Source: Rhodospirillaceae bacterium
GTDB taxonomy: Bacteria; Pseudomonadota; Alphaproteobacteria; UBA6615
Reading direction: 5' to 3'
Length of the DNA: 64,000 nt
Assembly: GCA_018702955.1 (NCBI GenBank)
Contig: JABJEK010000097.1
Span: forward strand, 7,631-71,630
Below the pieces are notes generated by a model that was given only the letters and a program-made list of their open reading frames with translations, ran no database searches and had not been told where the DNA came from. Shown here one piece after another: positions 28,561-63,805 of the stretch. The translations under genes were made by a program, and so were the position numbers. The number at the start of each line of letters is the position of its first letter. Within the stretch, counting starts at the first letter, position 1.

Positions 28561-28616
28561 AAGAAACCGTCCCGATTTTGCGTTTGGATTTATTATTTAT
28601 TATTTGGGACCAACAC

Positions 28617-28646: not shown

Positions 28647-28661
28647 ACATCGGGTACGCAC

Positions 28662-29945: not shown

Positions 29946-29987
29946 TCTCCGCCTCCGGGCTTTGTGGTTTTGCGATGCAACCTAATT

Positions 29988-43333: not shown

Positions 43334-43360
43334 TCTCTCCCTGGTTTACACCGCCAAATG

Positions 43361-44410
43361 TCAGCCGAAACTTGGCTCGCCCGCGACGGGTTCAAAATAG
43401 TCATCGACATCGGCGTCACTGACCGCATCGAGGGTCGCCGGGTCCCATTGTGGTGCCCCGTCCTTGTCGATCACGACCGCGCGGATGCCTTCGAACAAAT
43501 CATGACCCCGGAAACTACGGTCGGCAAGGCGGTACTCCATCGCCATGATGTCGGCGATCGATTCAATGCGCGCGCCCAGACGCAACTGCCGGTGCGTGAC
43601 CTTCAGGGCGGTCGGCGACTTCGAGGCCAATGTCTCGATTTGCGTCCGCGCCCAGTCGCTGTCCTCGGCCGCGAGCCGGGCCAGGATGTCCTCGACGCTG
43701 TCGCCCGCAAAACAACGATCGATCGCATCGCGATGTGCCGCCAGTGGCGCCTCCCCCGGGTCGACCGCGAAGTCACGCAGAATGTCGGCGACCCCGTCCC
43801 CGTCGAGTGTCGTGGCCGCGACCAACGCGGCGATCAGGTCCTCATCACGGTCGGCCGGCACGTGAACGTCGCCGATGCCCGCATAAAGCGTGTCGGCGGC
43901 CCGCAAACGATGGCCGGTCAGCCCGAGATACATGCCGATTTCACCCGGACAACAGGGCAGGAACCAGCTGGCACCAATGTCAGGAAACAGCCCGATGCCG
44001 GTTTCCGGCATCGCGAACAGGATCCGGTCCGAGACGACGCGGTGCGAACCATGCACCGACATACCCACGCCGCCGCCCATGGTCACCCCGTCCATCAGCG
44101 CGATGTAGGGCTTCGGAAAGGTGTGGATCATCACGTTCAGCTTGTATTCCGCGGCGTAGTAGGTCGGCCCGAAATCTGTGCCGCGCCCCTCATACAGATC
44201 GCGGATATCGCCGCCGGCACAGAAGGCCTTATCACCCGTCCCCTGAATGACGACCGCATCCACGCCGTCATCCGCGGCCCAGGCTTCGAGTTGCGGCGCG
44301 ATCGCATGGATCATGGACAGGGACAGCGCATTCAGCGCCTTGGGCTTGTTCAACGTGATCAAGCCAATCCGCCCGCGCTGTTCGAGCAGAACTTCGGGTT
44401 CATCGTTCAT
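43361..44410 (-). CDS. 3-hydroxyisobutyryl-CoA hydrolase (crotonase superfamily)
   Basis: ITLNKPKALNALS...AFCAGGDIR...ALMDGVTMGGGVG. About 350 aa, typical of 3-hydroxyisobutyryl-CoA hydrolase (HIBCH). Confidence 0.8.
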   Translation of the reverse strand: MNDEPEVLLEQRGRIGLITLNKPKALNALSLSMIHAIAPQLEAWAADDGVDAVVIQGTGDKAFCAGGDIRDLYEGRGTDFGPTYYAAEYKLNVMIHTFPKPYIALMDGVTMGGGVGMSVHGSHRVVSDRILFAMPETGIGLFPDIGASWFLPCCPGEIGMYLGLTGHRLRAADTLYAGIGDVHVPADRDEDLIAALVAATTLDGDGVADILRDFAVDPGEAPLAAHRDAIDRCFAGDSVEDILARLAAEDSDWARTQIETLASKSPTALKVTHRQLRLGARIESIADIMAMEYRLADRSFRGHDLFEGIRAVVIDKDGAPQWDPATLDAVSDADVDDYFEPVAGEPSFG

Positions 44411-44417
44411 GGAAAAC

Positions 44418-45557
44418 CTACTGACGCAAAAGATCTCGGGAAATAATCACGCGCATGATCTCGTTGGTGCCCTCAAGAATTTGATGCACACGCAGATCGC
44501 GCAGATAACGTTGGATGGGGAACTCTTTCAGGTATCCATAGCCGCCGTGTAGCTGCAGGGCCTGGTTCACCACGTCGAAGCCGGTGTCGGTCGCCACGCG
44601 CTTGGCCATCGCTGCGGCCACCGTAGTGCCGTGCATCTTGTTGTCGAGCATCCAGGCGGCGCGGTGGATCATCAACCGCGCGGATTCGAGTTCGGTCGCC
44701 ATATCGGCCAGGCGGAACTGCAGCGCCTGGAAGTCCGCCAGCGGCTGGCCGAACTGCTTGCGCTCCTTCATATAATCGCGCGTCGCATCGAGACAGGCCC
44801 GCGCGCCGCCGATCGAGCAGGCGCCTATATTGAGCCGGCCACCGTCGAGGCCCTGCATGGCGATCTTGAACCCCTCACCCTCGGCACCGATCAGGTTCTC
44901 GACCGGGACCCGGCAATCCTCGAAGATTACAGCCGCGGTGGGCTGGCTGTTCCAGCCGAGTTTCCGCTCCAGCTTGCCGAACGAAAGCCCCGGTGCATCC
45001 TTTTCGACGACGATGCAGCTGATGCCTCCAGGGCTGTCGTCTCCGGTACGCACCATGCAGACGTAGATATCTGCCGCTGAGCCACCCGAGATGAACGCCT
45101 TGGACCCGTTCAGGACGTAGTGGTCGCCGTCACGCTTGGCGCTGGTGCGCAGCGCTGCCGCGTCCGAGCCCGAGCCCGGCTCGGTCAGGCAGTAACTCGC
45201 GAAATGTTCCATGGTCGTCAGTTTGGGCAGGAACTTCGCGCGCTGGGCATCACCGCCGAAGCTGTCGATCATCCACGCGCTCATATTGTGGATCGAGATA
45301 TAGGCTGCGGTTGAAGGACACGCGCTCGCCAGTTCCTCGAAGATGATCGTGGAATCCATGCGGCCGAGGCCCGAGCCACCTTGCTCCGGGTCGCAGTAGA
45401 TACCGGCCAGCCCCAACGCCGCAGCGGCGCGAAGCGTATCCACCGGGAAGATGCATTCCTCGTCCCATTTTTCGGCATGAGGCAGCATTTCGTCGGTCGC
45501 GAAACCGCGCGCCATGTCCTGTATCGCGGACTGTTCTTCCGTGAGCTGAAAATCCAC
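44418..45557 (-). CDS. acyl-CoA dehydrogenase (isobutyryl-CoA dehydrogenase-like)
   Basis: A GTG start gives the canonical N-terminus VDFQLTEEQ. Acyl-CoA dehydrogenase motifs [10 protein letters not shown] and QLHGGYGY. 379 aa. The track ORF runs 39 codons further upstream. Confidence 0.8.
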
Positions 45558-45685
45558 CTTGCGGGCCCCGTTTGTTTGTCGCGCGATCCGGAAACGAATC
45601 CGCGCGCGCCGGAGTCTAACCGCTCGCACATATGGAACCAATCCCCGCCCGCCTGCGCTAGAATGGGCGAACAAGGAGCAATGTT

Positions 45686-49185: not shown

Positions 49186-49736
49186 CTCTTTGCCATTTCG
49201 TCGGCGAGGTCTGACGACCATTCCGCGCGGGGCCGGTAGCCCTCGGTCGCCTTGCACAGCTCTTCGGTCAGCTTGATGATCTCGTCGTCCGACAGGTCGA
49301 ATTCGAGATACTCGCCGAAGGGCTGGGGCACGTGGAAGGGCGAATCCAGATAGACCTCGATATTGTTGCCCTCGGGGTCGTCGAAATAGACCGACCAGGC
49401 GTTGCCGTGGTTGCGCGGCAGGAGGTTCTCGACGCCCTCGTCCACCACCCGCCGGTACATCACCCGCAATTCGCCCAGGGATTTCACCCTGAACGACAGC
49501 TGGTTGATCGTGCTGGGCACGTCGTCGGGCCGACCGCTCGCCAATATTACCTGATGATGCATCGCGGGATCGTTGGACATGAAGGTGATGTGTCCGTTGT
49601 AACGCTCGACGAACCCACGATCCGTCACGGTGAAACCAAGAATGCGGGTGTAGAAATCGGCCATTCGGTCGGTATCGCGCACCCACATGCCCGCATGGGA
49701 GAGTTGTGGTTTGATCTGGTCTGTCATGTCGTTCAT
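49182..49736 (-). CDS. VOC (glyoxalase/bleomycin-resistance/dioxygenase) family protein
   Basis: 184 aa with two beta-alpha-beta-beta-beta modules (HAGMWVRD...; EGNNIEVYLD). Stop overlaps the lactonase-like metallo-hydrolase stop by 4 nt (convergent). Confidence 0.7.
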   Translation of the reverse strand: MNDMTDQIKPQLSHAGMWVRDTDRMADFYTRILGFTVTDRGFVERYNGHITFMSNDPAMHHQVILASGRPDDVPSTINQLSFRVKSLGELRVMYRRVVDEGVENLLPRNHGNAWSVYFDDPEGNNIEVYLDSPFHVPQPFGEYLEFDLSDDEIIKLTEELCKATEGYRPRAEWSSDLADEMAKS

Positions 49737-50938
49737 CCCTCCGATGCCACGACGCCGCTGTCCTGCAGCGCCGCGATCTGTTCTGCGTCGTAGCCGATAT
49801 CACCGAGAATCTCGGCCGTGTGTTCACCGACTTCCGGCGGTGCGACCGCGAACGAACTCGGCGTTCGCGACAAAGATACCGGCTGGCGTGCAAAGCGCAT
49901 CTCGCCCAGCGCCGGGGACGTCAGCGGTTGGGCGATGCCCAGATGCTGGACCTGGGGGTCGTCGAAGACCTGGCCGATGTCGTTGATCGGCCCGCAAGGC
50001 ACGCCCGCCGCGTTGAACTTCTCGACCCACCCGGCCGACGTATCGGTTGCGATCGCTTCGCCGATCAACCGGTTCAGCCGGTCGCGGTTTTCCGAGCGCC
50101 CGGGTGCGTCCTCGAACTCCGGGTCCGTCATCCATTCCTCATGGCTGAGGATACGGCAGAACCGCCCCCAGATTTCCTGACCCGCAACCGCGATGTTGAT
50201 GTGCCCGTCCGACGTGGCGAACACGCCGGTCGGAATGCTTGTCGGATGGTTGTTCCCGGCCTGCCCCGGAACGTCCTCGTCGACCAGCCAGCGCGCCGAT
50301 TGGAAATCGAGCATGAATATCTGCGCCTCGAGCAGCGACGTCTGGAGCCACTGGCCCTTGCCGGATTTATCGCGCTCGAGCAGCGCCAGCAGGATACCCT
50401 GGGCCGCAAACAGCCCGGCCGTCAGATCCGCGATCGGAATGCCGACCCGCATCGGGCCCTCGCCCGGTGCGCCCGTGATGGACATCAGCCCGCCCATGCC
50501 CTGGGCGATCTGGTCGAAGCCCGGCCGCTTGGCATAGGGCCCGTCCTGGCCGAAGCCCGAGATGCTCGCGAGGATGATCCGCGGATTGATCGCCGCGAGT
50601 GATTCATAGTCGATGCCCAGGCGGTTCTTCACGTCGGGCCGGTAATTCTCGACCACCACATCGGCGTTCGCGACGAGCTTGCGAAACACCTCCTTGCCCG
50701 CCTCGGCCTTGAGGTCGAGCGCGAGGGACCGCTTGTTGCGGTGCAGGTTCTGGAAATCCGAGCCATGGCGTGATCCGCCGAGTGCGGCACCGCCTTCGAC
50801 GGCGGGCGGCATCTCGACCTTGATAACATCGGCCCCCCAATCGGCGAGCTGACGCACACAAGTCGGGCCTGAACGGACACGGGTCAGATCGAGGACCTTT
50901 ACATGGTCGAGGACCGCGGCGGCGGGATGGTGAGGCAT
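49733..50938 (-). CDS. CoA-transferase family III (CaiB/BaiF) protein
   Basis: VKVLDLTRVRSGPTCVRQLADWGADVIKVE...VENYRP...catalytic Asp region. Confidence 0.85.
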   Translation of the reverse strand: MPHHPAAAVLDHVKVLDLTRVRSGPTCVRQLADWGADVIKVEMPPAVEGGAALGGSRHGSDFQNLHRNKRSLALDLKAEAGKEVFRKLVANADVVVENYRPDVKNRLGIDYESLAAINPRIILASISGFGQDGPYAKRPGFDQIAQGMGGLMSITGAPGEGPMRVGIPIADLTAGLFAAQGILLALLERDKSGKGQWLQTSLLEAQIFMLDFQSARWLVDEDVPGQAGNNHPTSIPTGVFATSDGHINIAVAGQEIWGRFCRILSHEEWMTDPEFEDAPGRSENRDRLNRLIGEAIATDTSAGWVEKFNAAGVPCGPINDIGQVFDDPQVQHLGIAQPLTSPALGEMRFARQPVSLSRTPSSFAVAPPEVGEHTAEILGDIGYDAEQIAALQDSGVVASEG

Positions 50939-50964
50939 GATTTCTCTCTACGTCGGTGTTTTGA

Positions 50965-51930
50965 CTAAAGCTTGAGCAGGCGCTTGGCGTTTCCGTTCAG
51001 GATCTTCGCCTTGTCTTCGGCGTTCAGGTGCACCCGCTCGATCCAGTCCATCCCCGGCGCGTTGGGCACAAAAGGATAATCGACGGAGAACAGAATCCGG
51101 TCGGCACCCATCTCGGCGATCGAGCACATCAGGGCCGGATCGGAGAAATTGCCGCTGGTCGTGATGTGGAAGTTGCGGCTGAACACCTCGCGGAACGACA
51201 GGGACTTGTTGCCCGGCCGCGACAGCGCGTGGTCGATCCGCCAGAGCAGGAACGGCAATCCCTCGCCGAGATGGCCGAGGATGATGTTGCAGTCCGGATA
51301 CTTCTCCAGCACCCCGCTCAGGACGATACGAATCCCCTGGGTCGCGGTCTCGACCGTGAAGCCCCAGCCGGCGTTCAGCAGTGCGGGGAAATCCTTCACA
51401 TAGGGCTCGTAATAGGTGTCGACGACGGTCTTGTTCGGGACGGCGGGATGCATATACAGCGGCACGCCGAGGGCCTGGGCCCGCTCGAAGACCGGCCAGA
51501 AGCGCTCGTCGTCGAAGAACACGCCATGGGTCAGCCCATGAATCATCGCGCCCTTGAAGCCCAGTTCGTTGACGCAACGCGAGAGCTCGTCGGCGCAGGC
51601 ATCCGGATCGGGCGTGGGCAGGTTCGCGAAGGCCGCAAACCGGTCCGGTCGCTGGGCGACGATATCGCGCAGCCTGTCGTTGGTGGCGCGGGTCACCTCC
51701 GCCGCTGTGGCCGGCTCGAGCCGCTGTGTCGACGGCGCGCCATGAGACAGGACCTGAATATCGACGCCCGTGGCGTCCATCTCCGCAATCCGCGCATCGA
51801 ACAAATCCTCCAGCTTGGTCTGCATCACGCCGGACCCACCCCGGTCTTCCTCCGCGACATGCGCCGTCAGCTCCGGATCCCAGTAATGCTCTTCGATCGC
51901 GATGACCTGTTCGCCGTTCGACGTCGCCAT
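50965..51930 (-). CDS. amidohydrolase-2 family (ACMSD-like decarboxylase/hydratase)
   Basis: Internal ATG (MATSNGEQVIAIEEHY) with a GGGGGAGAG RBS. IEEHY...HGL...DYPF metal-site pattern of the PF04909 family. Confidence 0.75.
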   Translation of the reverse strand: MATSNGEQVIAIEEHYWDPELTAHVAEEDRGGSGVMQTKLEDLFDARIAEMDATGVDIQVLSHGAPSTQRLEPATAAEVTRATNDRLRDIVAQRPDRFAAFANLPTPDPDACADELSRCVNELGFKGAMIHGLTHGVFFDDERFWPVFERAQALGVPLYMHPAVPNKTVVDTYYEPYVKDFPALLNAGWGFTVETATQGIRIVLSGVLEKYPDCNIILGHLGEGLPFLLWRIDHALSRPGNKSLSFREVFSRNFHITTSGNFSDPALMCSIAEMGADRILFSVDYPFVPNAPGMDWIERVHLNAEDKAKILNGNAKRLLKL

Positions 51931-52154
51931 GTGTCTCTCCCCCGGTCGTATTTGTTTGTTTGCTGCTGGATCGTACTGAGTCCCGACAGGCTTACGCAAA
52001 GAAACAGGTACAAGAAAGAATTTTTCCAATAATCAAATTCGTGGTTCACTTGTCCCAACGCCCTTCGCGATGCGGCCATTCGCTTACGGCCCGGGAAGCG
52101 TGGGAATTGGCGTCACTTAAGATCGCCAGCCAACGAATACGGGAGGAATTACAA

Positions 52155-53879
52155 ATGAAAATGATCATCGAACGCGATGTGCCGATCACCATGGATGACG
52201 GCCAGGTGCTGCGGGTGGACGTCTACCGGCCCGACACGAAGAAAAAAGTGCCGGTCGTCATGGCCGGCGGCCCCTACGGGAAAGGCGTGAAGTACCAGGA
52301 GCATTACAAGCCGCTCTGGGATTCACTTCTCAAGATGCACCCCGATATCCTGCCGGACTCGAAACATCGCTGGCTGACCTGGGAAACCGTCGATCCCGAA
52401 GTCTGGGTTCCCTGGGGCTACGCCTGCGTGCGGCTCGATTCCCGTGGTGCGGGCCGGTCTCCCGGTTATCTCGATATATTCTCGCCCCGCGAGACCCAGG
52501 ATTACGCCAACGCCATCGAATGGGCCGGCGAGCAGAAATGGTCGAACGGCAATGTCGGCCTGAACGGCGTGTCCTATTACGCGATCAACCAGTGGCAGGT
52601 CGCCGCTCTGCAGCCCAAGCATCTGACGGCGATGATCCCCTGGGAGGGCGCGGCGGATCAGTATCGTGACTGGGCGCGCCATGGCGGCATCCTGTCCAAC
52701 GTGTTCATGGAGATCTGGTATCCACGTCAGGTCGAGAATGTGCAGCACGGCAATGCGAAGGGCCCAAAGGACCGCTGGATGGGCGAAAGCGCCACCGGCC
52801 CCGCCAAGCTGTCGCCGGCCGAGCTCAAGGCCAACCGCGCCGACACAATGGAGAATTTCCGTGTCCGCGAGATGGATGACGACTGGTACCAGTCGCGTTC
52901 TCCCGACTGGTCGAAGGTGAAAGTCCCCTTCCTGAGTGCCGCGAGCTGGGCCGGGTTCGGTCTTCACCCGCGCGGCAACTTCGAGGCCTACACCCAGGCC
53001 GCATCGCGTCAGAAATGGCTCGAAGGCCATCCGGGGCGCCACGAGGAATGGTTCTATCTCGAATACGGCATGGAGCTGCAGAAGCGCTTCTTCGACTATT
53101 TCCTGAAGGGCGAGAAGAACGGCTGGAACCGGGAACCCAAGGTCTGGGTCAACCTGCGCCGCCCGTTCACCGACGATGTCGAGCTGCGCAAGGAAAGCGA
53201 GTGGCCGCTCAAGGGCACCAAGTGGACCAAGTATTTTCTCGATGCCGGCGGCAAGGGGAAGATGGACACGAAGGTCCCGAAGACGAACCGGAAGAAGGAA
53301 TTCCGGGCACTCACCCGCGGCATCACCTGGAAGTCCACACCGCTCGCGCGGGAGACCGAGTTCACCGGGCCGATGGCAGCCAAGCTCTTCGTCTCATCCT
53401 CGACCGAGGATTGCGATCTCTTCGTCACCGTCCAGGGCTGGTCGGACAAGGGCCGCGAGGTTCACTTCCAGGGCACGGTCGACCCAAAGACGCCGCTGGC
53501 CCAGGGTTGGCTGCGCGTCTCCCATCGCAAGCTGGACGAGGAAAAATCCGATCCCTGGCGGCCGTATCACACCCATGACGACAAGCAGATGCTCACACCG
53601 GGTCAGGTCTATGAGGTCGATGTCGAGATCTGGCCCCAGTGCGTCGAGTTGCCGAAGGGTTTCCAGATCTCGATCAACATCGCCGGGCAGGATTACGATC
53701 GGCCAGGACCGGCGGTCGACGCCTATGTTCCGTCGCGGGGCTCGGGCGTCTTCCTGCACGATCATCCGACGGACCGGCCGAAGGAAATCTTCGGCGGCAA
53801 GACGACGATCCACACCGGACCGAAGCACAAATCCTATCTGCTGATGCCGGTGATCCCGAAGAATCGCAAATCGACCTAG
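52155..53879 (+). CDS. CocE/NonD (X-Pro dipeptidyl-peptidase S15) family hydrolase
   Basis: Internal ATG (MKMIIERDVPI) with a GGGAGGA RBS. LDSRGAGRSPG...GVSYYA serine-nucleophile region. C-terminal beta-sandwich domain. Confidence 0.8.
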   Translation: MKMIIERDVPITMDDGQVLRVDVYRPDTKKKVPVVMAGGPYGKGVKYQEHYKPLWDSLLKMHPDILPDSKHRWLTWETVDPEVWVPWGYACVRLDSRGAGRSPGYLDIFSPRETQDYANAIEWAGEQKWSNGNVGLNGVSYYAINQWQVAALQPKHLTAMIPWEGAADQYRDWARHGGILSNVFMEIWYPRQVENVQHGNAKGPKDRWMGESATGPAKLSPAELKANRADTMENFRVREMDDDWYQSRSPDWSKVKVPFLSAASWAGFGLHPRGNFEAYTQAASRQKWLEGHPGRHEEWFYLEYGMELQKRFFDYFLKGEKNGWNREPKVWVNLRRPFTDDVELRKESEWPLKGTKWTKYFLDAGGKGKMDTKVPKTNRKKEFRALTRGITWKSTPLARETEFTGPMAAKLFVSSSTEDCDLFVTVQGWSDKGREVHFQGTVDPKTPLAQGWLRVSHRKLDEEKSDPWRPYHTHDDKQMLTPGQVYEVDVEIWPQCVELPKGFQISINIAGQDYDRPGPAVDAYVPSRGSGVFLHDHPTDRPKEIFGGKTTIHTGPKHKSYLLMPVIPKNRKST

Positions 53880-55698: not shown

Positions 55699-56844
55699 TT
55701 AGTGCCTTGCATGCACAAACATAGCGAACCCTAGCGCAACCGCGCTCAGCGCGGCCATGGCATAGAATGCACCGCCGGTGAAACTGCTGTAGAGCGCGCC
55801 GGACGCGATCAGCGCCAGCCCCATGATGATCCCCGATATGGAGGCGTAGGCGCCCTGCGCGGTCGCCTTCAGGCCTTCAGGCGCGTTCCCGGCGATGTAA
55901 TGCATCGTCGCCAGGTAGGTCGCACCGAAGGTGATGGCATGCATCGCCTGGGCCACGATCAGCCCCGGTAGAGCGACCGTCTCGGCCAGAATCAGCCAGC
56001 GCACCAAAGCCGTGCCCGCGCCCAGCAGGAGCAGCCGGGAGGCGCCAAGCCGCGCCACCACTGCACCGCTGAAGGCGAACAGGACGATCTCGACGACGAC
56101 GCTGCCGCCCCAGAGCAGCCCGACCATGAGTTCCGAATGCCCTGCCGCCTTCCAGTGGATGCCGGAGAACCCGTTGAGCACGGCATGGCTCGCCTGCACC
56201 GCACTGGCCGCCAGCACGAAGGCGAGGAAACGCCGGTTGCGGACAAACGCCAGCACATCCGTCCAGCGCGCATGGCCGCGCGCCTCGTTCTGCTCGCGCA
56301 GAAAAACCGTCGTCACCAGCACCGCGACGAGGCCGAAAAATATGACGAGCAGGATCAGATCCGGGTCACGCCCGGTCAGCAGCGCCCCCACCCCCAGAGT
56401 ACCCAGGATAAACGTCACCGAGCCCCACAACCGGATGCGGCCATAGTCCAGCCCGTGGCGGAGCACCGCCGACATGGCCTGGGAATCGCCGAGCGGAATG
56501 AGCGCATGATAACTCGGCGCATAGACGAGGGTGATCAGCAGGATCAGCCAGAAGGACGAGACCAGGGAGAAGCCGGAGAAGGCAATCAGGCTGACGGCCG
56601 CGGTGATGACCAGCATGCGGCGGCCCTGCCCCCCATGGTCGGCCGCGCGGGCGATCACCGGATCCACCAGCACCCGCATCCAGGGACCAACCGCAAGGAT
56701 GATGCCGATATCGCCCGGCGTCAGCCCACGGCTCTGCAGCCAGATCGGCCAGAACGGCACCACCACGCCCAGCACAAAGAAGACCGCGCCATAGAACATG
56801 GCGAAGCGGAGCGAGGTGCGGAACGGGGTCTCAGTCACGGCCAT
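55699..56844 (-). CDS. MFS transporter (HcaT / MFS_1_like type)
   Basis: 12 hydrophobic helices. N-terminus TPFRTSLRFAMFYGAVF resembles phenylpropionate/nucleoside-type MFS permeases. Confidence 0.7.
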   Translation of the reverse strand: MAVTETPFRTSLRFAMFYGAVFFVLGVVVPFWPIWLQSRGLTPGDIGIILAVGPWMRVLVDPVIARAADHGGQGRRMLVITAAVSLIAFSGFSLVSSFWLILLITLVYAPSYHALIPLGDSQAMSAVLRHGLDYGRIRLWGSVTFILGTLGVGALLTGRDPDLILLVIFFGLVAVLVTTVFLREQNEARGHARWTDVLAFVRNRRFLAFVLAASAVQASHAVLNGFSGIHWKAAGHSELMVGLLWGGSVVVEIVLFAFSGAVVARLGASRLLLLGAGTALVRWLILAETVALPGLIVAQAMHAITFGATYLATMHYIAGNAPEGLKATAQGAYASISGIIMGLALIASGALYSSFTGGAFYAMAALSAVALGFAMFVHARH

Positions 56845-56862
56845 TATGTTTGGGACTGCCCA

Positions 56863-56902
56863 TAAAAAACGCCGGCCGCCCACATGGTGTGAACGGCCGG
56901 CG
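56863..56902 (-). terminator. rho-independent terminator downstream of the deiodinase-like gene
   Basis: On the minus strand: cgccggccg-(15 nt)-cggccggcg, followed by TTTTTT. Confidence 0.7.
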
Positions 56903-56938
56903 CGTGATCTGTTTTACCGCAGAAGCGTAGGACGCTGC

Positions 56939-57709
56939 CTATTCGGCGGCTTCCTGTCGGCTGGCAATTTCTTCCTTCGACAGCGGCTGGTTCCGGAACC
57001 GGCCATGCTTCTCGTAATACGCATCGACCTGCACATGCTTGGCGACGGTCAGCGGTGCGGCCTTGAAGAAGTCATAGAGCGCAACAACGCCACCGGTCCA
57101 CATCGTCCGCATCATGTGCGGCATCGAACGCGTGGCCCGAAGTTCGGCGGTCGGTGCATTCTCGACCTTGTGATAGCTCTCGCGATCCTCAAGCGCCGCC
57201 TCGATCAGATGCGGGGCCGCCCAGTTGCAGCGATAGTGGATCGTGCCATCGGGGCGAATGATGTAGACGACGTTCGGCATGGCGCCATAGGCGCGATGGA
57301 AATCGCCGTCGAGACTGTCGACCAGCACCCGACGGAATTCCTTGTAGCGTGGCGCGACCAGTTCGGCGGACTTGAACTTGTCATCCATGTTCTGGTGCGG
57401 ACCCATGCGCTCACCCGGATGGGCCTCGCGGACATAGACCATGACAAAGTTCACGTCGGAGAACTTCTCGACGATGTCCCGGTAGATCTTGATGTTCTTC
57501 GTATACATCGAACAGGTCGACGAACCGGTCTCGATGACGGTCCACTGACCGTCGAAATCCGACAGTTTGACCTCTTCGCGCGTCGCAAGGTCGGTGAATG
57601 TGGCGTCGATATATTTGTCGCCCGCCTGCGGGCCGACAAAGGTGTCGAAGTTGTAATCCACAACGCGGAAACGTTTGTTGTTGTAAACAGGCTTCGGTGC
57701 ATCAGACAT
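56939..57709 (-). CDS. iodothyronine-deiodinase-like thioredoxin-fold protein (Cys variant)
   Basis: ETGSSTCSMY aligns with the deiodinase active site NFGS(C/A)TUPPF, with Cys in place of selenocysteine. FVMVYVREAHPGE aligns with the deiodinase FLLVYIDEAHPSDGW. AGAGGGGG RBS. Confidence 0.65.
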   Translation of the reverse strand: MSDAPKPVYNNKRFRVVDYNFDTFVGPQAGDKYIDATFTDLATREEVKLSDFDGQWTVIETGSSTCSMYTKNIKIYRDIVEKFSDVNFVMVYVREAHPGERMGPHQNMDDKFKSAELVAPRYKEFRRVLVDSLDGDFHRAYGAMPNVVYIIRPDGTIHYRCNWAAPHLIEAALEDRESYHKVENAPTAELRATRSMPHMMRTMWTGGVVALYDFFKAAPLTVAKHVQVDAYYEKHGRFRNQPLSKEEIASRQEAAE

Positions 57710-57868: not shown

Positions 57869-58927
57869 CTAGGCACCGAGTTTCGCGGCCATCCAGTCGG
57901 CCATCAGCGGCCGTGATTTGAACGGAATGTTGTCGCAGACGTGGTTTCCCTCGGGAAACACCACCAGTTCGGCATCGTCACCCGCCTCGTCGATCATCTG
58001 CTGGGATTCCTCGACCGGGCAGATTTCGTCGAGCCCGCTATGGACGATCAGCAGCGGGCACCCAATTCGATCGAGCACACCGTCCAGTGTGTACAGCTTC
58101 GCGGTCTCGGCGGCGTCTTCCACCGTCTCGTCGCCGAACGCGAAACGCAGCGTGTCCTGCACGGCGAATGGCATGCGGTCCCAGAAGCCCGACATGCTGT
58201 GGAACCCGCCGATCGAAACACACGCCTTGATGCGCGGATCGACCGAGGCGCGCGGCGCGGCATAGCCGCCGAAACTGCGGCCCCAGATGCCGATGCGCTC
58301 GCCGTCGATCTCGGGCCGCGCCTCCAGCACATCGATCAGCGCGCCGACAGGCACCTCCCAGTCCGGGCGGATCCGCCATTTGAGCATGGTCAGGCTCTGG
58401 CCCGGCCCGTCATAGGCGCAGGTGGCGACACCCCGCTTGAGAAACTCGTTCTCCAGCGTGTGGAACTCTTCCTTGGTCGAGTCCCCGCCGCAGGTGATCA
58501 TCACGCAGGGCGCGGGCCCGTCGGTATTGGGCACCCGCAGGTTGGCCGGGAAGCTGTCCCCGTCGAACGGAATGTCGATGACCTCGGCCGGGATCGCCAG
58601 ATGGGGCGCGCCCTTGGCATAGGCGGCGCGCTGGCGGCGTTGCATCCGCGCCTTCTCCTCGGCATCCCCGAAGGAGACCGACTGGCCGATATGATAGTAG
58701 AGCGCCGCGCGCACGAACGCCTCGCCCGCCGTCATGGCGCGACCCTCGGCCAACGCCGCGTCGCCAAGCCCCTCATGGGTCTCTGCCAGCCCTTCCCAGA
58801 CGGGCATCCATTCCTCCATCCGGGTGATGGTCCCCAGCACGGTCTGAGCGTCGTTGTAGTCGACCCCGGCGGCCATCAGCCGCGGGAACCTATGTTCGAT
58901 GGTTTCCTGTAGTGCAGCGTCGGCCAT
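57869..58927 (-). CDS. alpha/beta hydrolase (FrsA/DUF1100-like)
   Basis: Internal ATG (MADAALQETIEHRF). GWGRSFGG nucleophile elbow (GxSxG). 352 aa. Confidence 0.7.
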   Translation of the reverse strand: MADAALQETIEHRFPRLMAAGVDYNDAQTVLGTITRMEEWMPVWEGLAETHEGLGDAALAEGRAMTAGEAFVRAALYYHIGQSVSFGDAEEKARMQRRQRAAYAKGAPHLAIPAEVIDIPFDGDSFPANLRVPNTDGPAPCVMITCGGDSTKEEFHTLENEFLKRGVATCAYDGPGQSLTMLKWRIRPDWEVPVGALIDVLEARPEIDGERIGIWGRSFGGYAAPRASVDPRIKACVSIGGFHSMSGFWDRMPFAVQDTLRFAFGDETVEDAAETAKLYTLDGVLDRIGCPLLIVHSGLDEICPVEESQQMIDEAGDDAELVVFPEGNHVCDNIPFKSRPLMADWMAAKLGA

Positions 58928-58952
58928 GGCGCGCTCCCCGGTTGGACTGGTT

Positions 58953-59657
58953 TCAGTCGAGATGTTTGTGGAAAAAGTCGATGGACAGGGCGAGCGCCCT
59001 GGTCGCCTCGGGTTCGCTGTAGGTCGTGCCGCCGTGGCGCGCGAACGCGTGATCGGCGCCGGGATATTTGTGGATCTCGACCAGCGGGTTGGGTGACAGC
59101 CGCCGTTCAATCATCGCGCAGACCTCCGGCTGGACCCATTTGTCGGCCAGCGCCTGATGCAGCATGAAGGGCTTCGACAGGTTCGGCGCTTCCTTGATCG
59201 AATGCTCGATATAGGTGCCGTAATAGGCGACCGCGCAGTCAATGTCGGAGCGGCAGCACATCAGGTAGCCCATCTTGCCGCCGAGGCAGTAGCCGACAGT
59301 GCCGACCTTGCCGTTGCCGCCCTCGATGCTGCGCAGATAGCTCGCGGTGTCCTCCATATCCTGGACACCCAATTCGTAATCAAAGTCGTAATAGAGATCG
59401 ATCGCCTTGGCCCAGTGGTCCCGGTTGCCGTCGGACAGCTCGACCCCCGGCTCCAGCCGCCAGAACAGATCGGGCACGAGGGTGATCCAGCCCGCTTTCG
59501 CGAACTCCTGCGCGTGCTCGCGCATGGTGTCGTTGACGCCCCAGATTTCCATGATCGCGATGATCGCACCGACCGGTGCCTTGTCCGGATAGGCGACATG
59601 GGCGCCCATCATGGCGCCGTCGCGCAGCGGCACCTGGATATCTTCGATTCGTGCCAT
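58953..59657 (-). CDS. dienelactone hydrolase family protein
   Basis: GYCLGGKMG nucleophile-Cys elbow and the C-terminal His region of the dienelactone hydrolase family. 234 aa. Confidence 0.8.
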   Translation of the reverse strand: MARIEDIQVPLRDGAMMGAHVAYPDKAPVGAIIAIMEIWGVNDTMREHAQEFAKAGWITLVPDLFWRLEPGVELSDGNRDHWAKAIDLYYDFDYELGVQDMEDTASYLRSIEGGNGKVGTVGYCLGGKMGYLMCCRSDIDCAVAYYGTYIEHSIKEAPNLSKPFMLHQALADKWVQPEVCAMIERRLSPNPLVEIHKYPGADHAFARHGGTTYSEPEATRALALSIDFFHKHLD

Positions 59658-59670
59658 TTCGGTTCTCCTT

Positions 59671-62028
59671 CTAGTCCTGAAGCGCGGCCCAGACGCGCGC
59701 CGGTGTCATCGGCAGGTCGATCGGCTCCTTCCCGGCACTTGCCAGCGCGTCGGCAACCGCCGCCATGCCCGAGGGCAACGCACCCGCGACGCCGGATTCA
59801 CCCGCGCCCTTGGCGCCGAGCGGGTTCGTCGTCGCCGGCACCGAATGGTGGCCAACATCGAGAGCCGGCAAATCATCGGCCCGCGGCATCATGTAATCCA
59901 TGAACGAGCCGGTCACGAGTTGGCCGTCCGCGTCATAGACGACACATTCCCCCAGCACCTGGCCCAATCCCTGGGCGATACCGCCATGGATTTGACCCTC
60001 GACCACCATCTCGTCGAACACGTTCCCCACATCGTCGACCGCCGCATAGCGCGCGACAGCGACCGTTCCAGTTTCGGGATCTATCTCGACCTCACAGATG
60101 TGACAGCCGTTGGGGAAGGTCATCTGGGGGGATTCGAACTTCTCCGTCGCGTCCAGGCCGCCTGTAAACTCTTCCGGCAACGCCAGCGTCGAAATCCGGT
60201 CCGCCAGTTCGATGATGCCGATTTGCCGGTCGGTCCCCTTGATCCGAAACGCACCGGCATGGAATTCGACATCGTCGACGGCCGCCTCAAGCACATGCCC
60301 CGCCAGCGCGCGACCCTTCTCGATCGCGGTGTCGCAGGACACGGCCATGGCGCTGCCCGCCATCATCATCGAGCGCGACGCGACTGACGGCGTACCCGGC
60401 GGCGCTTCGAGGCTGTCCCCCTCGATCAGCCGCACCTTCGACGGCGGGATTCCCAGCCGGTCGCCGATCAGCCGTGTGTAGGTCGACAGGTGGCTCTGCC
60501 CCATGGCCTGCACCCCAAGCCGCACGGTCGCATAGCCGTCGCCCTCGAAACGCAGGTCGGCGGTCTCCTCGAGGATTCCGCCGGCGACTTCGAGGAAGCA
60601 GGCAATCCCGATTCCGCGCAGCCTGCCGTCTTTCTCGGATGCCGCACGGCGTGACGGAAACCCGTCCCAGTCGGCCAGCGCCAGCGCCTTGTCGAGGCAG
60701 GCCTCGAACTCGCCGGAATCATAGATCGGCCCGTTCGGCGTTGTGTAGGGCATCGCCGACGGGGCGATAAGGTTACGCCGGCGAATCTCGACCCGGTCGA
60801 TGCCCATTTCGGACGCCGCCCGGTCGAGCAATTGCTCGATCGCGATGATCGCCTCGGGCCGCCCCGCGCCGCGATAGGGGCCCAGCGGCGCCGTATTTGT
60901 CAGGGTCATAGTCACGTCGATATGGATCGCCGGAATCGTGTAAACGCTGGCCAGGCAATTCTTGGTGTTGTTGGTCGCGAACACCGCAGAGAAGGTGGTC
61001 AGGTAAGCCCCCATCCCGACCCGGTTGCGGACCCGCAGCCCCTGAATCACGCCGTCCCCGTCGAGCGCCATTTCGGCCGCGATCAGGGTGTCGCGTCCCG
61101 CCGTGTCAGCGAGAAAGCTCTCCAGCCGCGTGTTGCACCATTTAACCGGCCGACCAACCTGACGCGCCGCTAACAGGATCGCAGCATATTCGGGATAGGG
61201 ATGGGCCTTCATGCCGAAGCCGCCGCCGACATCATGGGTCAGCACCCGCAACTGATCGGGTTCCACGCCGAACACCTGGGCGGCGAACATCTTCGACACC
61301 AGCCCAACCCCCTGGGTCGGCGCGGTCAGCGTGTAACGGCCGAGCGCCTCGTCCCATTCGCCGATGCCGCCGCGCGGTTCCATGGAGACCGGCGCGAGGC
61401 GTGTGTCAAGCAACTCCACCCGCGAGATATGCGCCGCCTCGTCGAACGCCGAAGCCACCGCGCTTTCGTCCCCGTCCACCCACTCGAAGGCGACGTTGCC
61501 GGGCGCGCTGTCCCAAACCTGCGCCGCCCCATCGGCAAGCGCCTCCGCCACGCCGGGAACCGCCGGCAGGCTTTCTATATCGAGGATCACCGCTTCGGCC
61601 GCGTCCGCAGCCCGGACCGGCGTGTCGGCAACGACGAGCGCCACCGCCTCGCCCGCATGGCGGACCTTCTCATACGCAAGCACCGGCTTGGGTGCCGACG
61701 CCATCGTCATGCCGTCTCTACCCGGAAAACTGATCGCCGGCGGGATATCGCCCAGGCCCGCGGCCTTCACGTCTGCACCGGTGATCACCGCCAGGACGCC
61801 GGGCATCACCAGCGCCGCCGCCACGTCGACGCCGCGCAGGACGCCATGAGCGACCGGCGACCGCACGAACGCGCCGTAGGCCTGCCCCGCCAAATTAATA
61901 TCGTCGGTGAAGCGTCCCGCCCCGGTCAGGAGCGGGAGGTCCTCGCTGCGCAGCGTGTCGCCGTCGCTGCCGTAGCGCGCGGTGATTTCGTTCACGGCTT
62001 TTGTCTCCTCGACCATCCGCCCCGGCAT
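59671..62028 (-). CDS. molybdopterin-dependent hydroxylase large subunit (CoxL/XDH family, form-II-like), paralog 2
   Basis: 785 aa. GPYRGAGRPEA active-site loop. VGGGFGMKA molybdenum-cofactor motif. About 35-40% identical by eye to the gene at 16680-19007. Confidence 0.85.
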   Translation of the reverse strand: MPGRMVEETKAVNEITARYGSDGDTLRSEDLPLLTGAGRFTDDINLAGQAYGAFVRSPVAHGVLRGVDVAAALVMPGVLAVITGADVKAAGLGDIPPAISFPGRDGMTMASAPKPVLAYEKVRHAGEAVALVVADTPVRAADAAEAVILDIESLPAVPGVAEALADGAAQVWDSAPGNVAFEWVDGDESAVASAFDEAAHISRVELLDTRLAPVSMEPRGGIGEWDEALGRYTLTAPTQGVGLVSKMFAAQVFGVEPDQLRVLTHDVGGGFGMKAHPYPEYAAILLAARQVGRPVKWCNTRLESFLADTAGRDTLIAAEMALDGDGVIQGLRVRNRVGMGAYLTTFSAVFATNNTKNCLASVYTIPAIHIDVTMTLTNTAPLGPYRGAGRPEAIIAIEQLLDRAASEMGIDRVEIRRRNLIAPSAMPYTTPNGPIYDSGEFEACLDKALALADWDGFPSRRAASEKDGRLRGIGIACFLEVAGGILEETADLRFEGDGYATVRLGVQAMGQSHLSTYTRLIGDRLGIPPSKVRLIEGDSLEAPPGTPSVASRSMMMAGSAMAVSCDTAIEKGRALAGHVLEAAVDDVEFHAGAFRIKGTDRQIGIIELADRISTLALPEEFTGGLDATEKFESPQMTFPNGCHICEVEIDPETGTVAVARYAAVDDVGNVFDEMVVEGQIHGGIAQGLGQVLGECVVYDADGQLVTGSFMDYMMPRADDLPALDVGHHSVPATTNPLGAKGAGESGVAGALPSGMAAVADALASAGKEPIDLPMTPARVWAALQD

Positions 62029-62095
62029 TCTGGCGGCCGGGGTCGAGCGAACAGTCTAGGAGAAGAGGCGGGACGCGGGAAGCGGCCTGTTCCCG

Positions 62096-62980
62096 CTAGA
62101 AGCGGTAGAACGCTTCCGAGTTCTCCACCATGATCTTGCGGCGCATGTCCTCGTCGGGTACCCACTGGCCGAAGGCCTCGACCGGATCGGCGTCGTTCGG
62201 GTTGACCTCATACTTGTTCGGATGGGGCCAGTCCGTGCCCCAGATCACGCGGTCGGCGTTCGCCTCGATGAGCGCACGGGCCATCGGCTGACAATCGTCA
62301 TACGGCGGCAGATCGGTCGCGCTGACGCGGTTGGCACCGGAGATCTTGATCCAGGTGTTGCCGTCGCGGACCAGCTTCAGCAGGGCCTGGAAGCCAGGCG
62401 CCTCGATGCCGGCGGTCGCCGGCTGATAGGCGAAATGGCCGATCGTCATAGGCGTCGTCATCTTCTCAAACACCGGCATCAGGCCGACGATGTCCTTGCC
62501 CGGGAACAGCCACTCAATGTGCCAGTCGAACGGCTTGATGCGCGCCTCCAACTCGGGGATCGCGTCGAGATCGAGCGGCATGCCGCCCTTGTTGTCGATG
62601 TTCAGGCGCACGCCGCGGATACCCTGGTCGCTCAGCTCCTGCAGCTGGGCATCGGTGAAGTCCATGGTCATGGCGCACACGCCACGAGCCCGGTTGGGGG
62701 TCTCGGCATTCAGCGTGTTCATGCCATCGAGGATGGCCGAATTGTCCGTGCCGTAGACCGACGGCTGGGTGAACACGACCCGGTCGATGCCCAGGGTCGC
62801 GTGCAGATGCTTGAGATCATCGAGCGTCGAGACCGGCGGGTTGTAGCCACGGTCGGGCGACAGCGGATAGCGGTCCTCGAACACATGCACATGGGTGTCG
62901 ATCGTGCCCTTGGGCAGGGTGATGTTCGGCTTGCGCGGGTTACGGTCGGGCGCAATGCAATCTCTGATGTCGCTGTTCAC
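62096..62980 (-). CDS. amidohydrolase-2 family protein (LigI-type lactonase-like)
   Basis: IDTHVHVF metal site near the N-terminus. WGTDWPHP C-terminal motif typical of the 2-pyrone-4,6-dicarboxylate lactonase branch. Confidence 0.7.
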   Translation of the reverse strand: MNSDIRDCIAPDRNPRKPNITLPKGTIDTHVHVFEDRYPLSPDRGYNPPVSTLDDLKHLHATLGIDRVVFTQPSVYGTDNSAILDGMNTLNAETPNRARGVCAMTMDFTDAQLQELSDQGIRGVRLNIDNKGGMPLDLDAIPELEARIKPFDWHIEWLFPGKDIVGLMPVFEKMTTPMTIGHFAYQPATAGIEAPGFQALLKLVRDGNTWIKISGANRVSATDLPPYDDCQPMARALIEANADRVIWGTDWPHPNKYEVNPNDADPVEAFGQWVPDEDMRRKIMVENSEAFYRF

Positions 62981-63055
62981 GGCGAGGCCTCTTCCTGATT
63001 TTTTTGTTCGTTCAAGTGTTTGAAGATCCCGCCGAGCGGCGGAAACGCTTCCCTA

Positions 63056-63805
63056 TCACATATTCCCGGCGGGCCGAAAGACGTCGCGCGAAGCGATTTC
63101 CAGCACCAGCTTGTTGATCACGGCGCGGGGGAAATCCGCCGGCGATTCCGTCACTACCGTAAAGGCACCCGGGCCGCCAATGACGACCTCGCGGAAGTAG
63201 CCGTCGAGGTCGTACTTCACGCCCTCGACCTCCGTCTGTTCCTGCTGCGGGTTGATGACCAGGCCGTTGATGGTGATGCCTTTGGCGAGCGCCCGGTCAC
63301 GCGCGGCCGAGACCTCTTCCTCGAGGCCGCGGGAATCGCGCCCGTCGGCCGACAGGTCGATCACATGCCGGGTGCCCTCGATGCCGTTGGCGTCGAACAG
63401 CGCCGCGGTGAAATCGAGCGCGCCGGTGATCGACGTCAGCCCGCCCTTGGGGATCGGGTTCGCGTCCACCGCCACCGCGAAGGCCGCGGCATCGGCGGCG
63501 CTGGCGATCACCGTCCAGCCGACGGTGATCCGCTGGGTCACCGACCACTCCACATAGGTCACCGCCACCCGGCCCAGCGGGCCCGACAGCATCGCGTTGA
63601 TCACGCCCGGGTCCGTCAGGGCCTGCACATATCCAACACGCTGCAGATTGACCTCGCCGCCGTCGATCGAGGCCGACACATCGACCGCGAGAACCAATTC
63701 CACATCGACGGGTATTTCCTGGGCACCTGCAGGGGCGACGGCAGGCGCAATCACCCACGCGGCGAGCGCCAGCAGGACGGCGGAGACCCTAGGCCAGGTT
63801 CGCAC
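63056..63805 (-). CDS. DUF1194 (secreted vWA-like) domain protein
   Basis: Signal peptide. LVLAVDVSASIDGGE...VAVTYVEWS...GITINGLVI matches alphaproteobacterial DUF1194 proteins. Confidence 0.65.
   Translation of the reverse strand: MRTWPRVSAVLLALAAWVIAPAVAPAGAQEIPVDVELVLAVDVSASIDGGEVNLQRVGYVQALTDPGVINAMLSGPLGRVAVTYVEWSVTQRITVGWTVIASAADAAAFAVAVDANPIPKGGLTSITGALDFTAALFDANGIEGTRHVIDLSADGRDSRGLEEEVSAARDRALAKGITINGLVINPQQEQTEVEGVKYDLDGYFREVVIGGPGAFTVVTESPADFPRAVINKLVLEIASRDVFRPAGNM

Follow-up and report, generated by a model that had tools for sequence, protein, structure and literature searches.

How a molybdenum hydroxylase large subunit might work when the genes for its electron-transfer subunits are not encoded beside it, and whether it acts together with the hydrolases that surround it, are the questions raised by a locus in a 64-kb stretch of Rhodospirillaceae DNA (the window). 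At positions 57869-62980, ORF analysis of the window showed four intact ORFs, all on the minus strand, and the Pfam domains of their products confirmed the gene set proposed in an earlier sequence-only reading of this DNA: one CoxL-like large subunit (L) and three hydrolases. The usual bacterial L-M-S arrangement, in which genes for the [2Fe-2S] subunit (S; Fer2_2) and the FAD subunit (M; FAD_binding_5) lie beside L, was found neither in the window nor in its 10-kb flank. The locus and the features related to it are as follows.

63056-63805, minus strand: DUF1194 protein (Pfam DUF1194, E 7e-67)
62096-62980, minus strand: LigI-like Amidohydro_2 lactonase (Pfam E 8.6e-41)
59671-62028, minus strand: CoxL-like molybdenum hydroxylase large subunit, L (Ald_Xan_dh_C, MoCoBD_1, and MoCoBD_2)
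58953-59657, minus strand: ClcD-type dienelactone hydrolase, DLH (Pfam DLH, E 6e-38)
57869-58927, minus strand: FrsA/DUF1100-type alpha/beta hydrolase of the DHPONH/AntI/Ayg1 group, here called the C-C hydrolase (Pfam FrsA-like, E 7.7e-18)
56939-57709, minus strand: deiodinase-like thioredoxin-fold protein (Pfam T4_deiodinase, E 2.6e-13, and AhpC-TSA)
56869-56903, minus strand: strong terminator-like hairpin (16-bp stem, then TTTTT)
55699-56883, minus strand: HcaT-like MFS transporter (NCBIfam PRK11128, 243 bits against a cutoff of 259)
16623-19004, plus strand: second CoxL-like large subunit, partnerless (44% identical to the first)

With ATG 62028 taken as the start of L and ATG 58927 as that of the last gene, the gaps between the lactonase, L, DLH, and C-C hydrolase genes are 67, 13, and 25 nt, respectively. 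The L gene itself most likely starts at GTG 61995, which would give a protein of 774 residues: this codon, located 11 codons after the start of the 785-aa ORF, is preceded by GAGGAG 8 nt upstream and is the start used in a public gene call (P0001) that is 100% identical to L. With this start, the gap between the lactonase and L genes becomes 100 nt. For the C-C hydrolase, a 413-aa ORF with a TTG start (57869-59110) overlaps the DLH gene, and the true start is almost certainly ATG 58927 (352 residues), because the ortholog alignments begin there. The DUF1194 gene is the upstream neighbor on the same strand, 75 nt before the lactonase gene, and the deiodinase-like gene follows the C-C hydrolase gene by 159 nt; the hairpin beyond it is likely to be the 3′ end of the transcription unit. 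An Rfam scan detected neither a Moco riboswitch nor any other element close to the operon, and a scan for sigma-70 promoters gave no more matches than in shuffled sequence.

The three domains of L span its full length (Pfam E 3e-24, 6e-66, and 2e-74), as in the large, Mo-pterin-binding subunits of the xanthine dehydrogenase/molybdenum hydroxylase family. In PDB comparison, L aligns end to end with CoxL (8uem, 473 bits), quinoline 2-oxidoreductase (Qor, 1t3q), and KdhL (7dqx), and this alignment contains no extra domain or large insertion relative to canonical large subunits. The active-site loop reads GPYRGAGRPEA. L also retains Gln239 (in TQG, aligned with FQA/TQA/TQM of CoxL, 8uem, and Qor), which we take to be the Gln hydrogen-bonding to Mo=O, and Glu744 (in GAKGAGES, aligned with GAKGVGES of CoxL), presumably the catalytic Glu near the C-terminus (CoxL E763/bovine xanthine oxidase E1261); both residues are invariant across the L clade. 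This full-length homology and these two residues are shared with Qor and form I CoxL (8uem and 1n5w), both of which belong to L-M-S heterotrimers. L scored below every NCBIfam equivalog cutoff; it belongs to a known enzyme family but is itself uncharacterised.

The functional analogies that had been drawn for the three hydrolases proved to be good, with catalytic residues conserved in each. The lactonase matches the 2-pyrone-4,6-dicarboxylate lactonase LigI (PDB 4d8l, E 2.3e-37), its IDTHVHVF, IGHFA, and WGTDWPHP segments aligning to IDAHCHVF, IDHMG, and WGTDWPHP, such that His31/His33 of the HxH motif, His180, and the catalytic Asp248 of LigI are all present in this Amidohydro_2 (COG3618) protein; the position of the Asp in LigI is confirmed by the D248N mutant entry 4dia. 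Its score of 195.5 bits against the NCBIfam model for 4-sulfomuconolactone hydrolase (NF042924) is below the cutoff of 500. DLH matches ClcD (PDB 1din, E 7.4e-40), and all six of the compared ClcD residues align in it (in GYCLGG, DHAFAR, LADKWV, MEIWGVN, and FWRLEPG), namely Cys123-His202-Asp171, which we take to be the triad, Glu36, and Arg81/Arg206, presumably carboxylate-binding. The C-C hydrolase matches 2,6-dihydroxypseudooxynicotine hydrolase (DHPONH) of the nicotine pathway (PDB 2jbw, E 7e-51 over residues 13-347), with GRSFGG, LDEI, and GNHVC aligned to GRSLGG, HDEV, and GDHCC and the Ser-Asp-His triad conserved; by sequence it belongs to the DHPONH/AntI/Ayg1 group of C-C hydrolases and is a putative C-C-cleaving enzyme. 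The families of LigI, 4-sulfomuconolactone hydrolase, and ClcD open carboxylate-bearing unsaturated lactones. Unlike in the settings of LigI and ClcD, the hydrolases of the window are not part of a protocatechuate or chlorocatechol pathway, and no ring-cleavage dioxygenase gene adjoins them.

The gene order DUF1194, lactonase, L, DLH, C-C hydrolase, deiodinase-like, and MFS is conserved in approximately 12 related genome assemblies, with the DLH and C-C hydrolase genes as variable accessory members: the former is absent in two orthologous loci (L007 and L008), and the latter in others (L002/L017 and L010-L012). Thus, the four-gene operon of the sequence-only reading does not stand as a unit, and the dispensability of these two genes weakens the case for a single linear pathway. 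The lactonase gene adjoins L in all orthologous loci; in one arrangement, a toxin-antitoxin cassette is inserted between the two, with the pairing otherwise kept. The constant neighbors of this pair are the DUF1194, deiodinase-like, and MFS transporter genes. DUF1194 is found upstream of the lactonase gene wherever the sequence of an orthologous locus reaches far enough, and encodes a protein with a signal-peptide-like N-terminal segment and weak VWA similarity (E 0.004); the deiodinase-like gene is kept in most loci, and was not detected in L007. The transporter passes the MFS subfamily model but scores below the PRK11128 cutoff for HcaT, the 3-phenylpropionate transporter, and is likely to be the importer for the gene array. 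The whole array is under purifying selection (dN/dS 0.06-0.23), including the DUF1194 (0.12-0.23), lactonase (0.08-0.16), and deiodinase-like (~0.1) genes.

On balance, and with moderate confidence, the locus is best explained as a conserved catabolic array in which L is partnered by S and M subunits encoded elsewhere. The array would be a catabolic set of an uncultured marine alphaproteobacterium, represented by Rhodospirillaceae-like assemblies, and we infer the following order of reactions and class of substrate. The cytoplasmic Mo-pterin subunit would oxidize an activated C-H bond of an imported, carboxylated ring compound, which may be heteroaromatic, pyrone- or furan-like, or may bear an acyl group as a side chain. 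After hydroxylation, the product would tautomerise, giving a lactone, lactam, or beta-keto species, and the tautomerised ring would then be opened by the always-adjacent LigI-like lactonase. In some lineages, the ClcD-type DLH may join in, and in some, the DHPONH-like C-C hydrolase may clip the acyl side chain. For these reactions, L would assemble with a [2Fe-2S] subunit, and probably with an FAD subunit as well, both encoded elsewhere in the genome. As a candidate module through which marine Alphaproteobacteria would degrade heterocyclic or lactone-forming compounds, the locus is of modest practical value.

A comparable case is provided by plasmid pAO1 of Paenarthrobacter nicotinovorans, which carries a nicotine pathway including the structurally characterised 6-hydroxypseudooxynicotine (ketone) dehydrogenase (KdhLMS), whose large subunit is matched by L with 362 bits (7dqx). 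On pAO1, kdhC (L) lies on the strand opposite to kdhA/kdhB (M/S), ~4.3 kb away from them, with the DHPONH gene and a cupin gene as immediate neighbors; the two systems thus share a large subunit gene set apart from M and S with a DUF1100-type C-C hydrolase gene nearby. They may also share a logic, proposed here, of ring hydroxylation followed by cleavage of an acyl side chain. They differ in several respects. The M and S genes on pAO1 are only ~4.3 kb off and MoxR, VWA, and XdhC maturation genes are nearby, whereas the window has none of these in 64 kb plus 10 kb; the pAO1 cluster, as shown, contains neither a LigI-like lactonase nor a DLH; and the C-C hydrolase of the window is only 34% identical to DHPONH and dispensable in orthologous loci.

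It may instead be that the genes merely happen to be neighbors, in DNA where catabolic genes are plentiful, with the hydrolases working in other pathways and L possibly being a general aldehyde or heterocycle oxidoreductase. The variable presence of DLH and the C-C hydrolase is in keeping with this idea, as are the different neighbors of cross-phylum L orthologs and the catabolic gene content of the window, which includes three Amidohydro_2 and two FAA-hydrolase genes among many others. Indeed, in a related soil clade sharing 60-66% identity, L repeatedly lies near genes for a GntR/FCD regulator and a LIV-type ABC transporter rather than near hydrolase genes, so that the hydrolase association may be specific to the lineage of the window; for such comparisons, only Pfam-checked neighbor clusters were used, as ORF calls were partly antisense in some high-GC loci. 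Chance adjacency is, however, difficult to reconcile with the invariant lactonase-L pair and its upstream DUF1194 gene, kept even across the toxin-antitoxin insertion, with the gaps of only 13-25 nt linking L, DLH, and the C-C hydrolase, or with a related assembly (L052) in which indels run throughout the DUF1194-to-DLH block while the downstream genes are much cleaner. On pAO1, moreover, L is again paired with DHPONH, and Shinella has a DHPONH-like gene near a molybdenum enzyme. Taken together, mere adjacency appears unlikely, although it retains some weight.

The partner genes of L were searched for in several ways. A regular-expression screen for the cysteine and FAD motifs in the six-frame ORFs of the window matched only an SDR, and tblastn searches of the window with Pfam-verified CoxS/CoxM queries, in agreement with the CoxS motif screen, and with Azospirillum form II S, M, XdhC, and MoxR queries gave no match. 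Pfam scans of nearly all codon-bias-selected candidate ORFs in the window likewise identified no S or M; the ORFs at 3163-3615 and 27811-28542, which lie inside longer scanned ORFs, and a short one at 53099-53461 were covered by the motif and tblastn searches. The absence of both genes from the 64 kb, reported previously, is therefore confirmed, and the same is true just outside the window: none is present in the 10 kb past its end on a public contig that carries the identical locus (L001). L is genuinely an orphan in cis.

This state is not peculiar to the locus, as the description of an orphan enzyme had implied, but is the norm for a large uncharacterised clade that extends across phyla. 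No S or M gene lies near L in any of the 13 relatives with at least 60% identity and at least 5 kb of sequence on both sides; in a wider set, such genes are near L in 3 of 62 loci, and in none of these three do they belong to that L. The clade is highly conserved, with a mean column identity of 79%. On a complete 3.9-Mb chromosome of the window's lineage (OZ244931.1; OZ253937.1 is another such chromosome), the ortholog of L maps to 3,301,216-3,323,525 and a second paralog to 1,292,149-1,314,434. Cultured strains carry orphan L genes as well, one being Mesorhizobium sp. L-2-11 on its plasmid MesoLjLa4 (WP_202367947.1). Subunit-linked genes are placed close to the orphans in a quick neighbor-joining tree of L, drawn without support values. 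A locus with the order S-M-L (L097) falls in the sister clade to that of the window, its large subunit being 71% identical to an orphan with 10 kb on both sides (L099) and 82% to that of L117, and a locus with the arrangement L..S-M (L133) is nested among orphans. Between lineages, S and M are 67-70% and 55-57% identical, respectively, while L is only 41-55% identical, values that fit diversified large subunits to which one conserved electron-transfer module docks. Dependence on S and M thus looks ancestral and appears to have been retained in the L clade.

Supply of S and M in trans is the best-supported reading, because subunit-linked relatives interleave with orphans and the ketone dehydrogenase of pAO1 is encoded with L apart from M and S. 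Since uncoupling is the norm for the clade, several L paralogs probably draw on a single S/M pair, and the evidence favors a hub-and-spoke organization in which one conserved pair services many interchangeable large subunits. The trans partner itself is hypothetical, since no S or M gene of the lineage was found in ~2.1 Mb of flanking DNA.

That last result, together with an orphan state that holds almost throughout so conserved a clade and is stable from phylum to phylum, and with several paralogs per genome of which every one is an orphan, could also mean that L stands alone, without [2Fe-2S] and FAD partners, catalyzing a redox-neutral reaction (trans-hydroxylation or isomerisation) or passing electrons directly to another acceptor. 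Against this, L contains no extra domain or insertion able to replace the clusters, subunit-linked genes that share 71-82% identity with orphans are interspersed among them, and the neighborhoods show no recurrent alternative redox partner; furthermore, to our knowledge, all characterised members of the molybdenum hydroxylase family carry a pair of [2Fe-2S] clusters, either on a subunit or on a fused domain. A stand-alone enzyme is accordingly considered improbable, and slightly more so is the broader proposition that the whole cross-phylum clade consists of Mo-pterin subunits working without dedicated [2Fe-2S] and FAD subunits, in redox-neutral reactions or with a new electron acceptor. Under the preferred reading, with S and M shared in trans, the question raised is how each catalytic subunit is matched with the shared pair, and the orphan branch offers biochemists a well-defined clade to work on.

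That L is a form II CO dehydrogenase-like enzyme ("putative CoxL"), oxidizing CO or a related small molecule, is very unlikely. The best PDB and NCBIfam similarities of L are indeed to CO dehydrogenase large subunits, and its homologs are publicly labelled "carbon-monoxide dehydrogenase large subunit"; however, all scores are far below the equivalog cutoffs, and no coxS, coxM, coxD, coxE, or coxF gene is present at the locus. Form I is rejected by the loop, PYRGAGR rather than AYRCSFR and thus without the Cu-binding Cys of CoxL, and by a score of 489 bits against the TIGR02416 cutoff of 991. As for form II, the type assigned previously, only the loop motif bears out the assignment: L shares the family and the YRGAGR-type loop with the genuine form II enzyme of Azospirillum lipoferum 4B (plasmid AZO_p3), but is only 45.7% identical to its large subunit, falls in a separate clade of the neighbor-joining tree, and lacks the coxSLM operon context, the Azospirillum cluster (coxS-coxL-coxM-moxR-VWA-xdhC) carrying S, M, and maturation genes of which the window locus has none. 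A decaying relic, left after loss of S and M, might account for the missing partners in cis and the indel-ridden copy in L052, but this, like the possibility of a pseudogene raised in the sequence-only reading, is effectively refuted by the intact ORF, by dN/dS of 0.11-0.15 against five orthologs (dS 0.8-1.2), and by 65-69% identity across phyla with Gln239, the YRGAGR loop, and Glu744 conserved and the catalytic residues invariant.

Few oxidoreductase genes in environmental genomes are as expanded, or as often mislabelled, as the CoxL-like ones, for which CO dehydrogenase is the routine label. A large, highly conserved branch of them that is systematically without electron-transfer partner genes, and lies near transporters, GntR regulators, and ring-opening hydrolases, argues against tallying its members as CO oxidation genes. 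Our literature search returned no paper on orphan or stand-alone large subunits or on sharing of S and M in trans, and nothing informative on orphan large subunits was found in two of the papers retrieved (PMC8305020; PMC11245477). The sections of a study of sponge symbionts that deal with COG1529 (CoxL-family) genes report averages of up to ~29 per genome in some phyla, and no known function for the largest CoxL-family sequence cluster; these sections do not discuss the linkage of S and M to L genes or the clade of the window (PMC8941161). Many L-type genes per genome are a feature common to those symbionts and the lineage of the window.

A second orphan large subunit gene in the window itself, at 16623-19004 on the plus strand, was overlooked in the sequence-only reading. 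It is likewise without S and M partners, and adjoins FAA-hydrolase, Amidohydro_2, TPP-enzyme, aldo-keto reductase, and MFS genes.

Positions 57869-62980 contain four intact minus-strand ORFs, assigned by Pfam, and these bear out the sequence-only reading of a CoxL-like large subunit together with three hydrolases:

62096-62980, minus strand: LigI-like lactonase gene (Amidohydro_2, 294 aa)
59671-62028, minus strand: gene for the large (Mo-pterin) subunit, L (Ald_Xan_dh_C, MoCoBD_1 and MoCoBD_2; full-length xanthine-dehydrogenase/CoxL family; 785 aa from ATG 62028)
58953-59657, minus strand: dienelactone hydrolase (DLH) gene (dienelactone hydrolase family, 234 aa)
57869-58927, minus strand: FrsA-like alpha/beta hydrolase gene (start ATG 58927, 352 aa)

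For the FrsA-like gene, ATG 58927 was retained as the start and TTG 59110, which overlaps the DLH gene, was rejected; the true start of L is probably GTG 61995 (774 aa), which has GAGGAG 8 nt upstream and agrees with the public gene call. The intergenic gaps are 100 nt between lactonase and L (67 nt if L starts at ATG 62028), 13 nt between L and DLH, and 25 nt between DLH and the FrsA-like gene. None of the four proteins reached an NCBIfam equivalog cutoff: L obtained 517 bits (cutoff 950) and 489 bits (cutoff 991) with the two CO dehydrogenase models, and 502 bits (cutoff 790) with that for glyceraldehyde dehydrogenase.

Genes for the small [2Fe-2S] (S) and medium FAD (M) subunits were sought in several ways. 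Regular expressions for the pair of cysteine motifs of CoxS and the FAD motif of CoxM matched, among all six-frame ORFs of the window, only a short-chain dehydrogenase. Likewise, tblastn with Pfam-verified S and M from two related loci (L067 and L038), and with S, M, XdhC, and MoxR of a canonical Azospirillum form II cluster, gave no match in the window, and Pfam found no Fer2_2, FAD_binding_5, CO_deh_flav_C, XdhC, or MoxR domain in nearly all codon-biased ORFs, three others (two within longer scanned ORFs and one short) being covered by motif search and tblastn only. The absence of partner genes from the 64 kb, as originally read, is thus upheld. S/M genes immediately past the window had been named as a finding that would speak against that reading; since there is none either in the window or in a further 10 kb of L001, a public contig carrying the identical locus, this objection does not arise. 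The flank in L001 instead encodes DUF1194, hydrolases, cupin, GntR, PNPOx-like, CoA-transferase, and other proteins.

The orphan state, that is, an L gene without S/M genes in cis, is a property of the whole L clade (mean column identity, 79%), and this generalization is one of the two most useful outcomes of the analysis. A genome scan yielded 68 loci, the majority from uncultured marine Alphaproteobacteria or Rhodospirillaceae-like assemblies. Of 62 L loci flanked by 5 kb or more on each side, three contain S/M genes of any kind, which in each instance go with a different, more remote Mo enzyme or with L073 itself, a distant outgroup; in the subset of such loci with L at at least 60% identity, the count is 0 of 13. 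A metagenome scan with the clade alignment added 80 loci, only three with S/M genes. The nearest non-alphaproteobacterial relatives (65–69% identical; Rokubacteria-, Dormibacterota-, and Methylomirabilota-type assemblies and unclassified metagenome contigs) were orphan in all three cases inspected. Where a single assembly has several L paralogs (two or three), every one is orphan, and a cultured example is provided by a Mesorhizobium plasmid. At L153 (2171-7832; L 44% identical), a MoxR gene and a pair of XdhC-like maturation genes directly precede L, spaced so that a VWA gene would fit in between; S/M genes are absent from the available sequence, 5.5 kb on the 5′ side and 10 kb on the 3′ side.

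That L is a pseudogene, the other possibility raised against the original reading, is contradicted by its intact ORF, its retained catalytic residues, and a dN/dS of 0.11–0.15 against five orthologs (dS 0.8–1.2), with neighboring genes behaving similarly. L aligns over its full length with CoxL, CutL, Qor, and KdhL and has no additional domain; Gln239 (TQG), the Gln contacting Mo=O, and Glu744 (GAGES), the catalytic Glu, are conserved. Unlike true CO dehydrogenases, whose active-site loop contains a Cu-binding Cys, L has the loop PYRGAGR without such a Cys, and genes of this kind should not be annotated as CO dehydrogenase, the second of the two most useful outcomes. The loop motif agrees with the proposed form-II type; however, L falls in a different clade from, and is only 45.7% identical to, the L of the genuine Azospirillum form II cluster (coxS-L-M-moxR-VWA-xdhC). 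The locus encodes an enzyme that is uncharacterized but belongs to a known family, and its arrangement is common but unstudied; that CoxL-family genes of unknown function are expanded has been noted before (PMC8941161).

Sequence relationships and analogy favor an orphan L that would still use S/M subunits encoded elsewhere. In a neighbor-joining tree, the S-M-L locus L097 falls within the sister clade of the window clade, its L being 71% identical to the well-flanked orphan L099 and 82% to L117, and L133, with the order L..S-M, is nested among orphans. Between lineages, S (67–70%) and M (55–57%) are better conserved than L (just 41–55%), the pattern expected of diversified catalytic subunits served by a conserved electron-transfer module that docks onto them. 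In the structurally characterized ketone dehydrogenase (KDH) of the pAO1 nicotine pathway, kdhC (L) is encoded in the opposite orientation to kdhA/kdhB (M/S), 4.3 kb away from them, and directly adjoins a cupin gene and the gene for 2,6-dihydroxypseudooxynicotine hydrolase (DHPONH). A stand-alone L acting without S/M is quite improbable, as all characterized family members, to our knowledge, need two [2Fe-2S] clusters.

The earlier observation is therefore confirmed and its interpretation partly supported: the four genes are adjacent, but do not form a fixed operon. Orthologs (75–89% identity) share a constant array of DUF1194, lactonase, L, a deiodinase-like gene (thioredoxin fold) followed 3′ by a strong terminator-like hairpin, an MFS transporter resembling HcaT, and OsmC in convergent orientation, with DLH and the FrsA-like C-C hydrolase occurring together in four loci, DLH alone in five, and the C-C hydrolase alone in two. 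Thus, the four-gene set represents a local variant of a broader, modular array built around lactonase and L. In the ortholog L002 (82% identical), a RelE-like/HTH toxin-antitoxin pair (9222-9893) is inserted between lactonase and L without breaking either gene; L017 appears to carry the same insertion, and the pair is kept in both. The corresponding region of the window (62029-62095, minus strand) contains a GC-rich inverted repeat, CCCCGGC...GCCGGGG, which overlaps the upstream ATG 62028 and may form an intercistronic stem-loop. The DUF1194 protein (63056-63805, minus strand), which begins with a signal-peptide-like segment and is weakly similar to VWA (E 0.004), is encoded upstream of the lactonase-L pair without exception, a secreted protein adjoining cytoplasmic enzymes. 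At L052 (CBDHEC010000059.1, 746-5723), compared with window positions 58953-63805, the DUF1194-to-DLH genes are full of indels and frameshifts (32, 12, 48, and 9 gap openings), reflecting either joint pseudogenization or a local assembly problem; in the adjacent genes the count drops to 3 (FrsA-like) and 1 (deiodinase-like), with 91–92% protein identity.

The hydrolase analogies first drawn, to lactone opening and a nicotine-type DUF1100-like enzyme, are sound, since all three proteins match the respective structures with catalytic residues intact. The lactonase matches LigI (PDB 4d8l, E 2e-37) with the HxH motif, third His, and catalytic Asp of WGTDWPHP all conserved; DLH matches ClcD (1din, E 7e-40) with the GYCLGG Cys, His, Asp, Glu36, and the two substrate arginines aligned; and the FrsA-like protein matches DHPONH (2jbw, E 7e-51) with an intact Ser-Asp-His triad, followed by AntI and Ayg1, C-C hydrolases that shorten polyketides. 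The best-supported mechanism would comprise import of a carboxylated ring compound, Mo-dependent hydroxylation to a lactone, lactam, or beta-keto tautomer, and ring opening by the lactonase; DLH and the C-C hydrolase would be additions specific to certain lineages, the KDH/DHPONH pair serving as the analogy. The HcaT-like transporter and a GntR/FCD regulator lie nearby in the window lineage; in a related soil clade, a regulator of the latter type lies immediately upstream, and the neighborhood includes a LIV-type ABC transporter. The FrsA-like hydrolase has its nearest plasmid-borne relative (41.7% identity) on pShin-01 of Shinella sp. HZN7 (L157, 8980-16860), where it is encoded ~4 kb from a two-subunit Mo enzyme (2Fe-2S protein and Mo-cofactor-binding protein), close to dioxygenase and cupin genes; this is a further instance of a DHPONH-type hydrolase and a Mo hydroxylase occurring together. 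The deiodinase-like protein (56939-57709, minus strand), whose gene adjoins the MFS transporter gene in most orthologous loci, has by eye a GSSTCSMY Cys at the presumed Sec/Cys site; that it and DLH hint at halogenated aromatic substrates is pure speculation.

A second orphan CoxL-like L (16623-19004, plus strand; 794-aa stop-to-stop ORF), 44% identical to the first and with no ortholog in the fetched loci, lies in the same window, which is rich in catabolic genes throughout and also carries a urease cluster:

5182-9146: hydantoinase A/B
10036-16053: neighbors of the second L, namely FAA hydrolase (15157-16053), Amidohydro_2 (14241-15152, minus strand), TPP enzyme, aldo-keto reductase, and MFS transporter
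19224-24274: urease cluster, then urea/LIV-type ABC transporter (24238-29981)
33198-34850: FMO-like flavin monooxygenase
42446-45683: valine-catabolism-like acyl-CoA set
50968-52032, minus strand: third Amidohydro_2 gene, paired with a family III CoA-transferase (49736-50947)
elsewhere in the window: GMC oxidoreductase

An Rfam 5_ureB_sRNA match (22312-22601, plus strand; 85 bits, E 1e-20) overlaps, in antisense orientation, the 5′ portion of the gene for the urease alpha subunit (21047-22756, minus strand).
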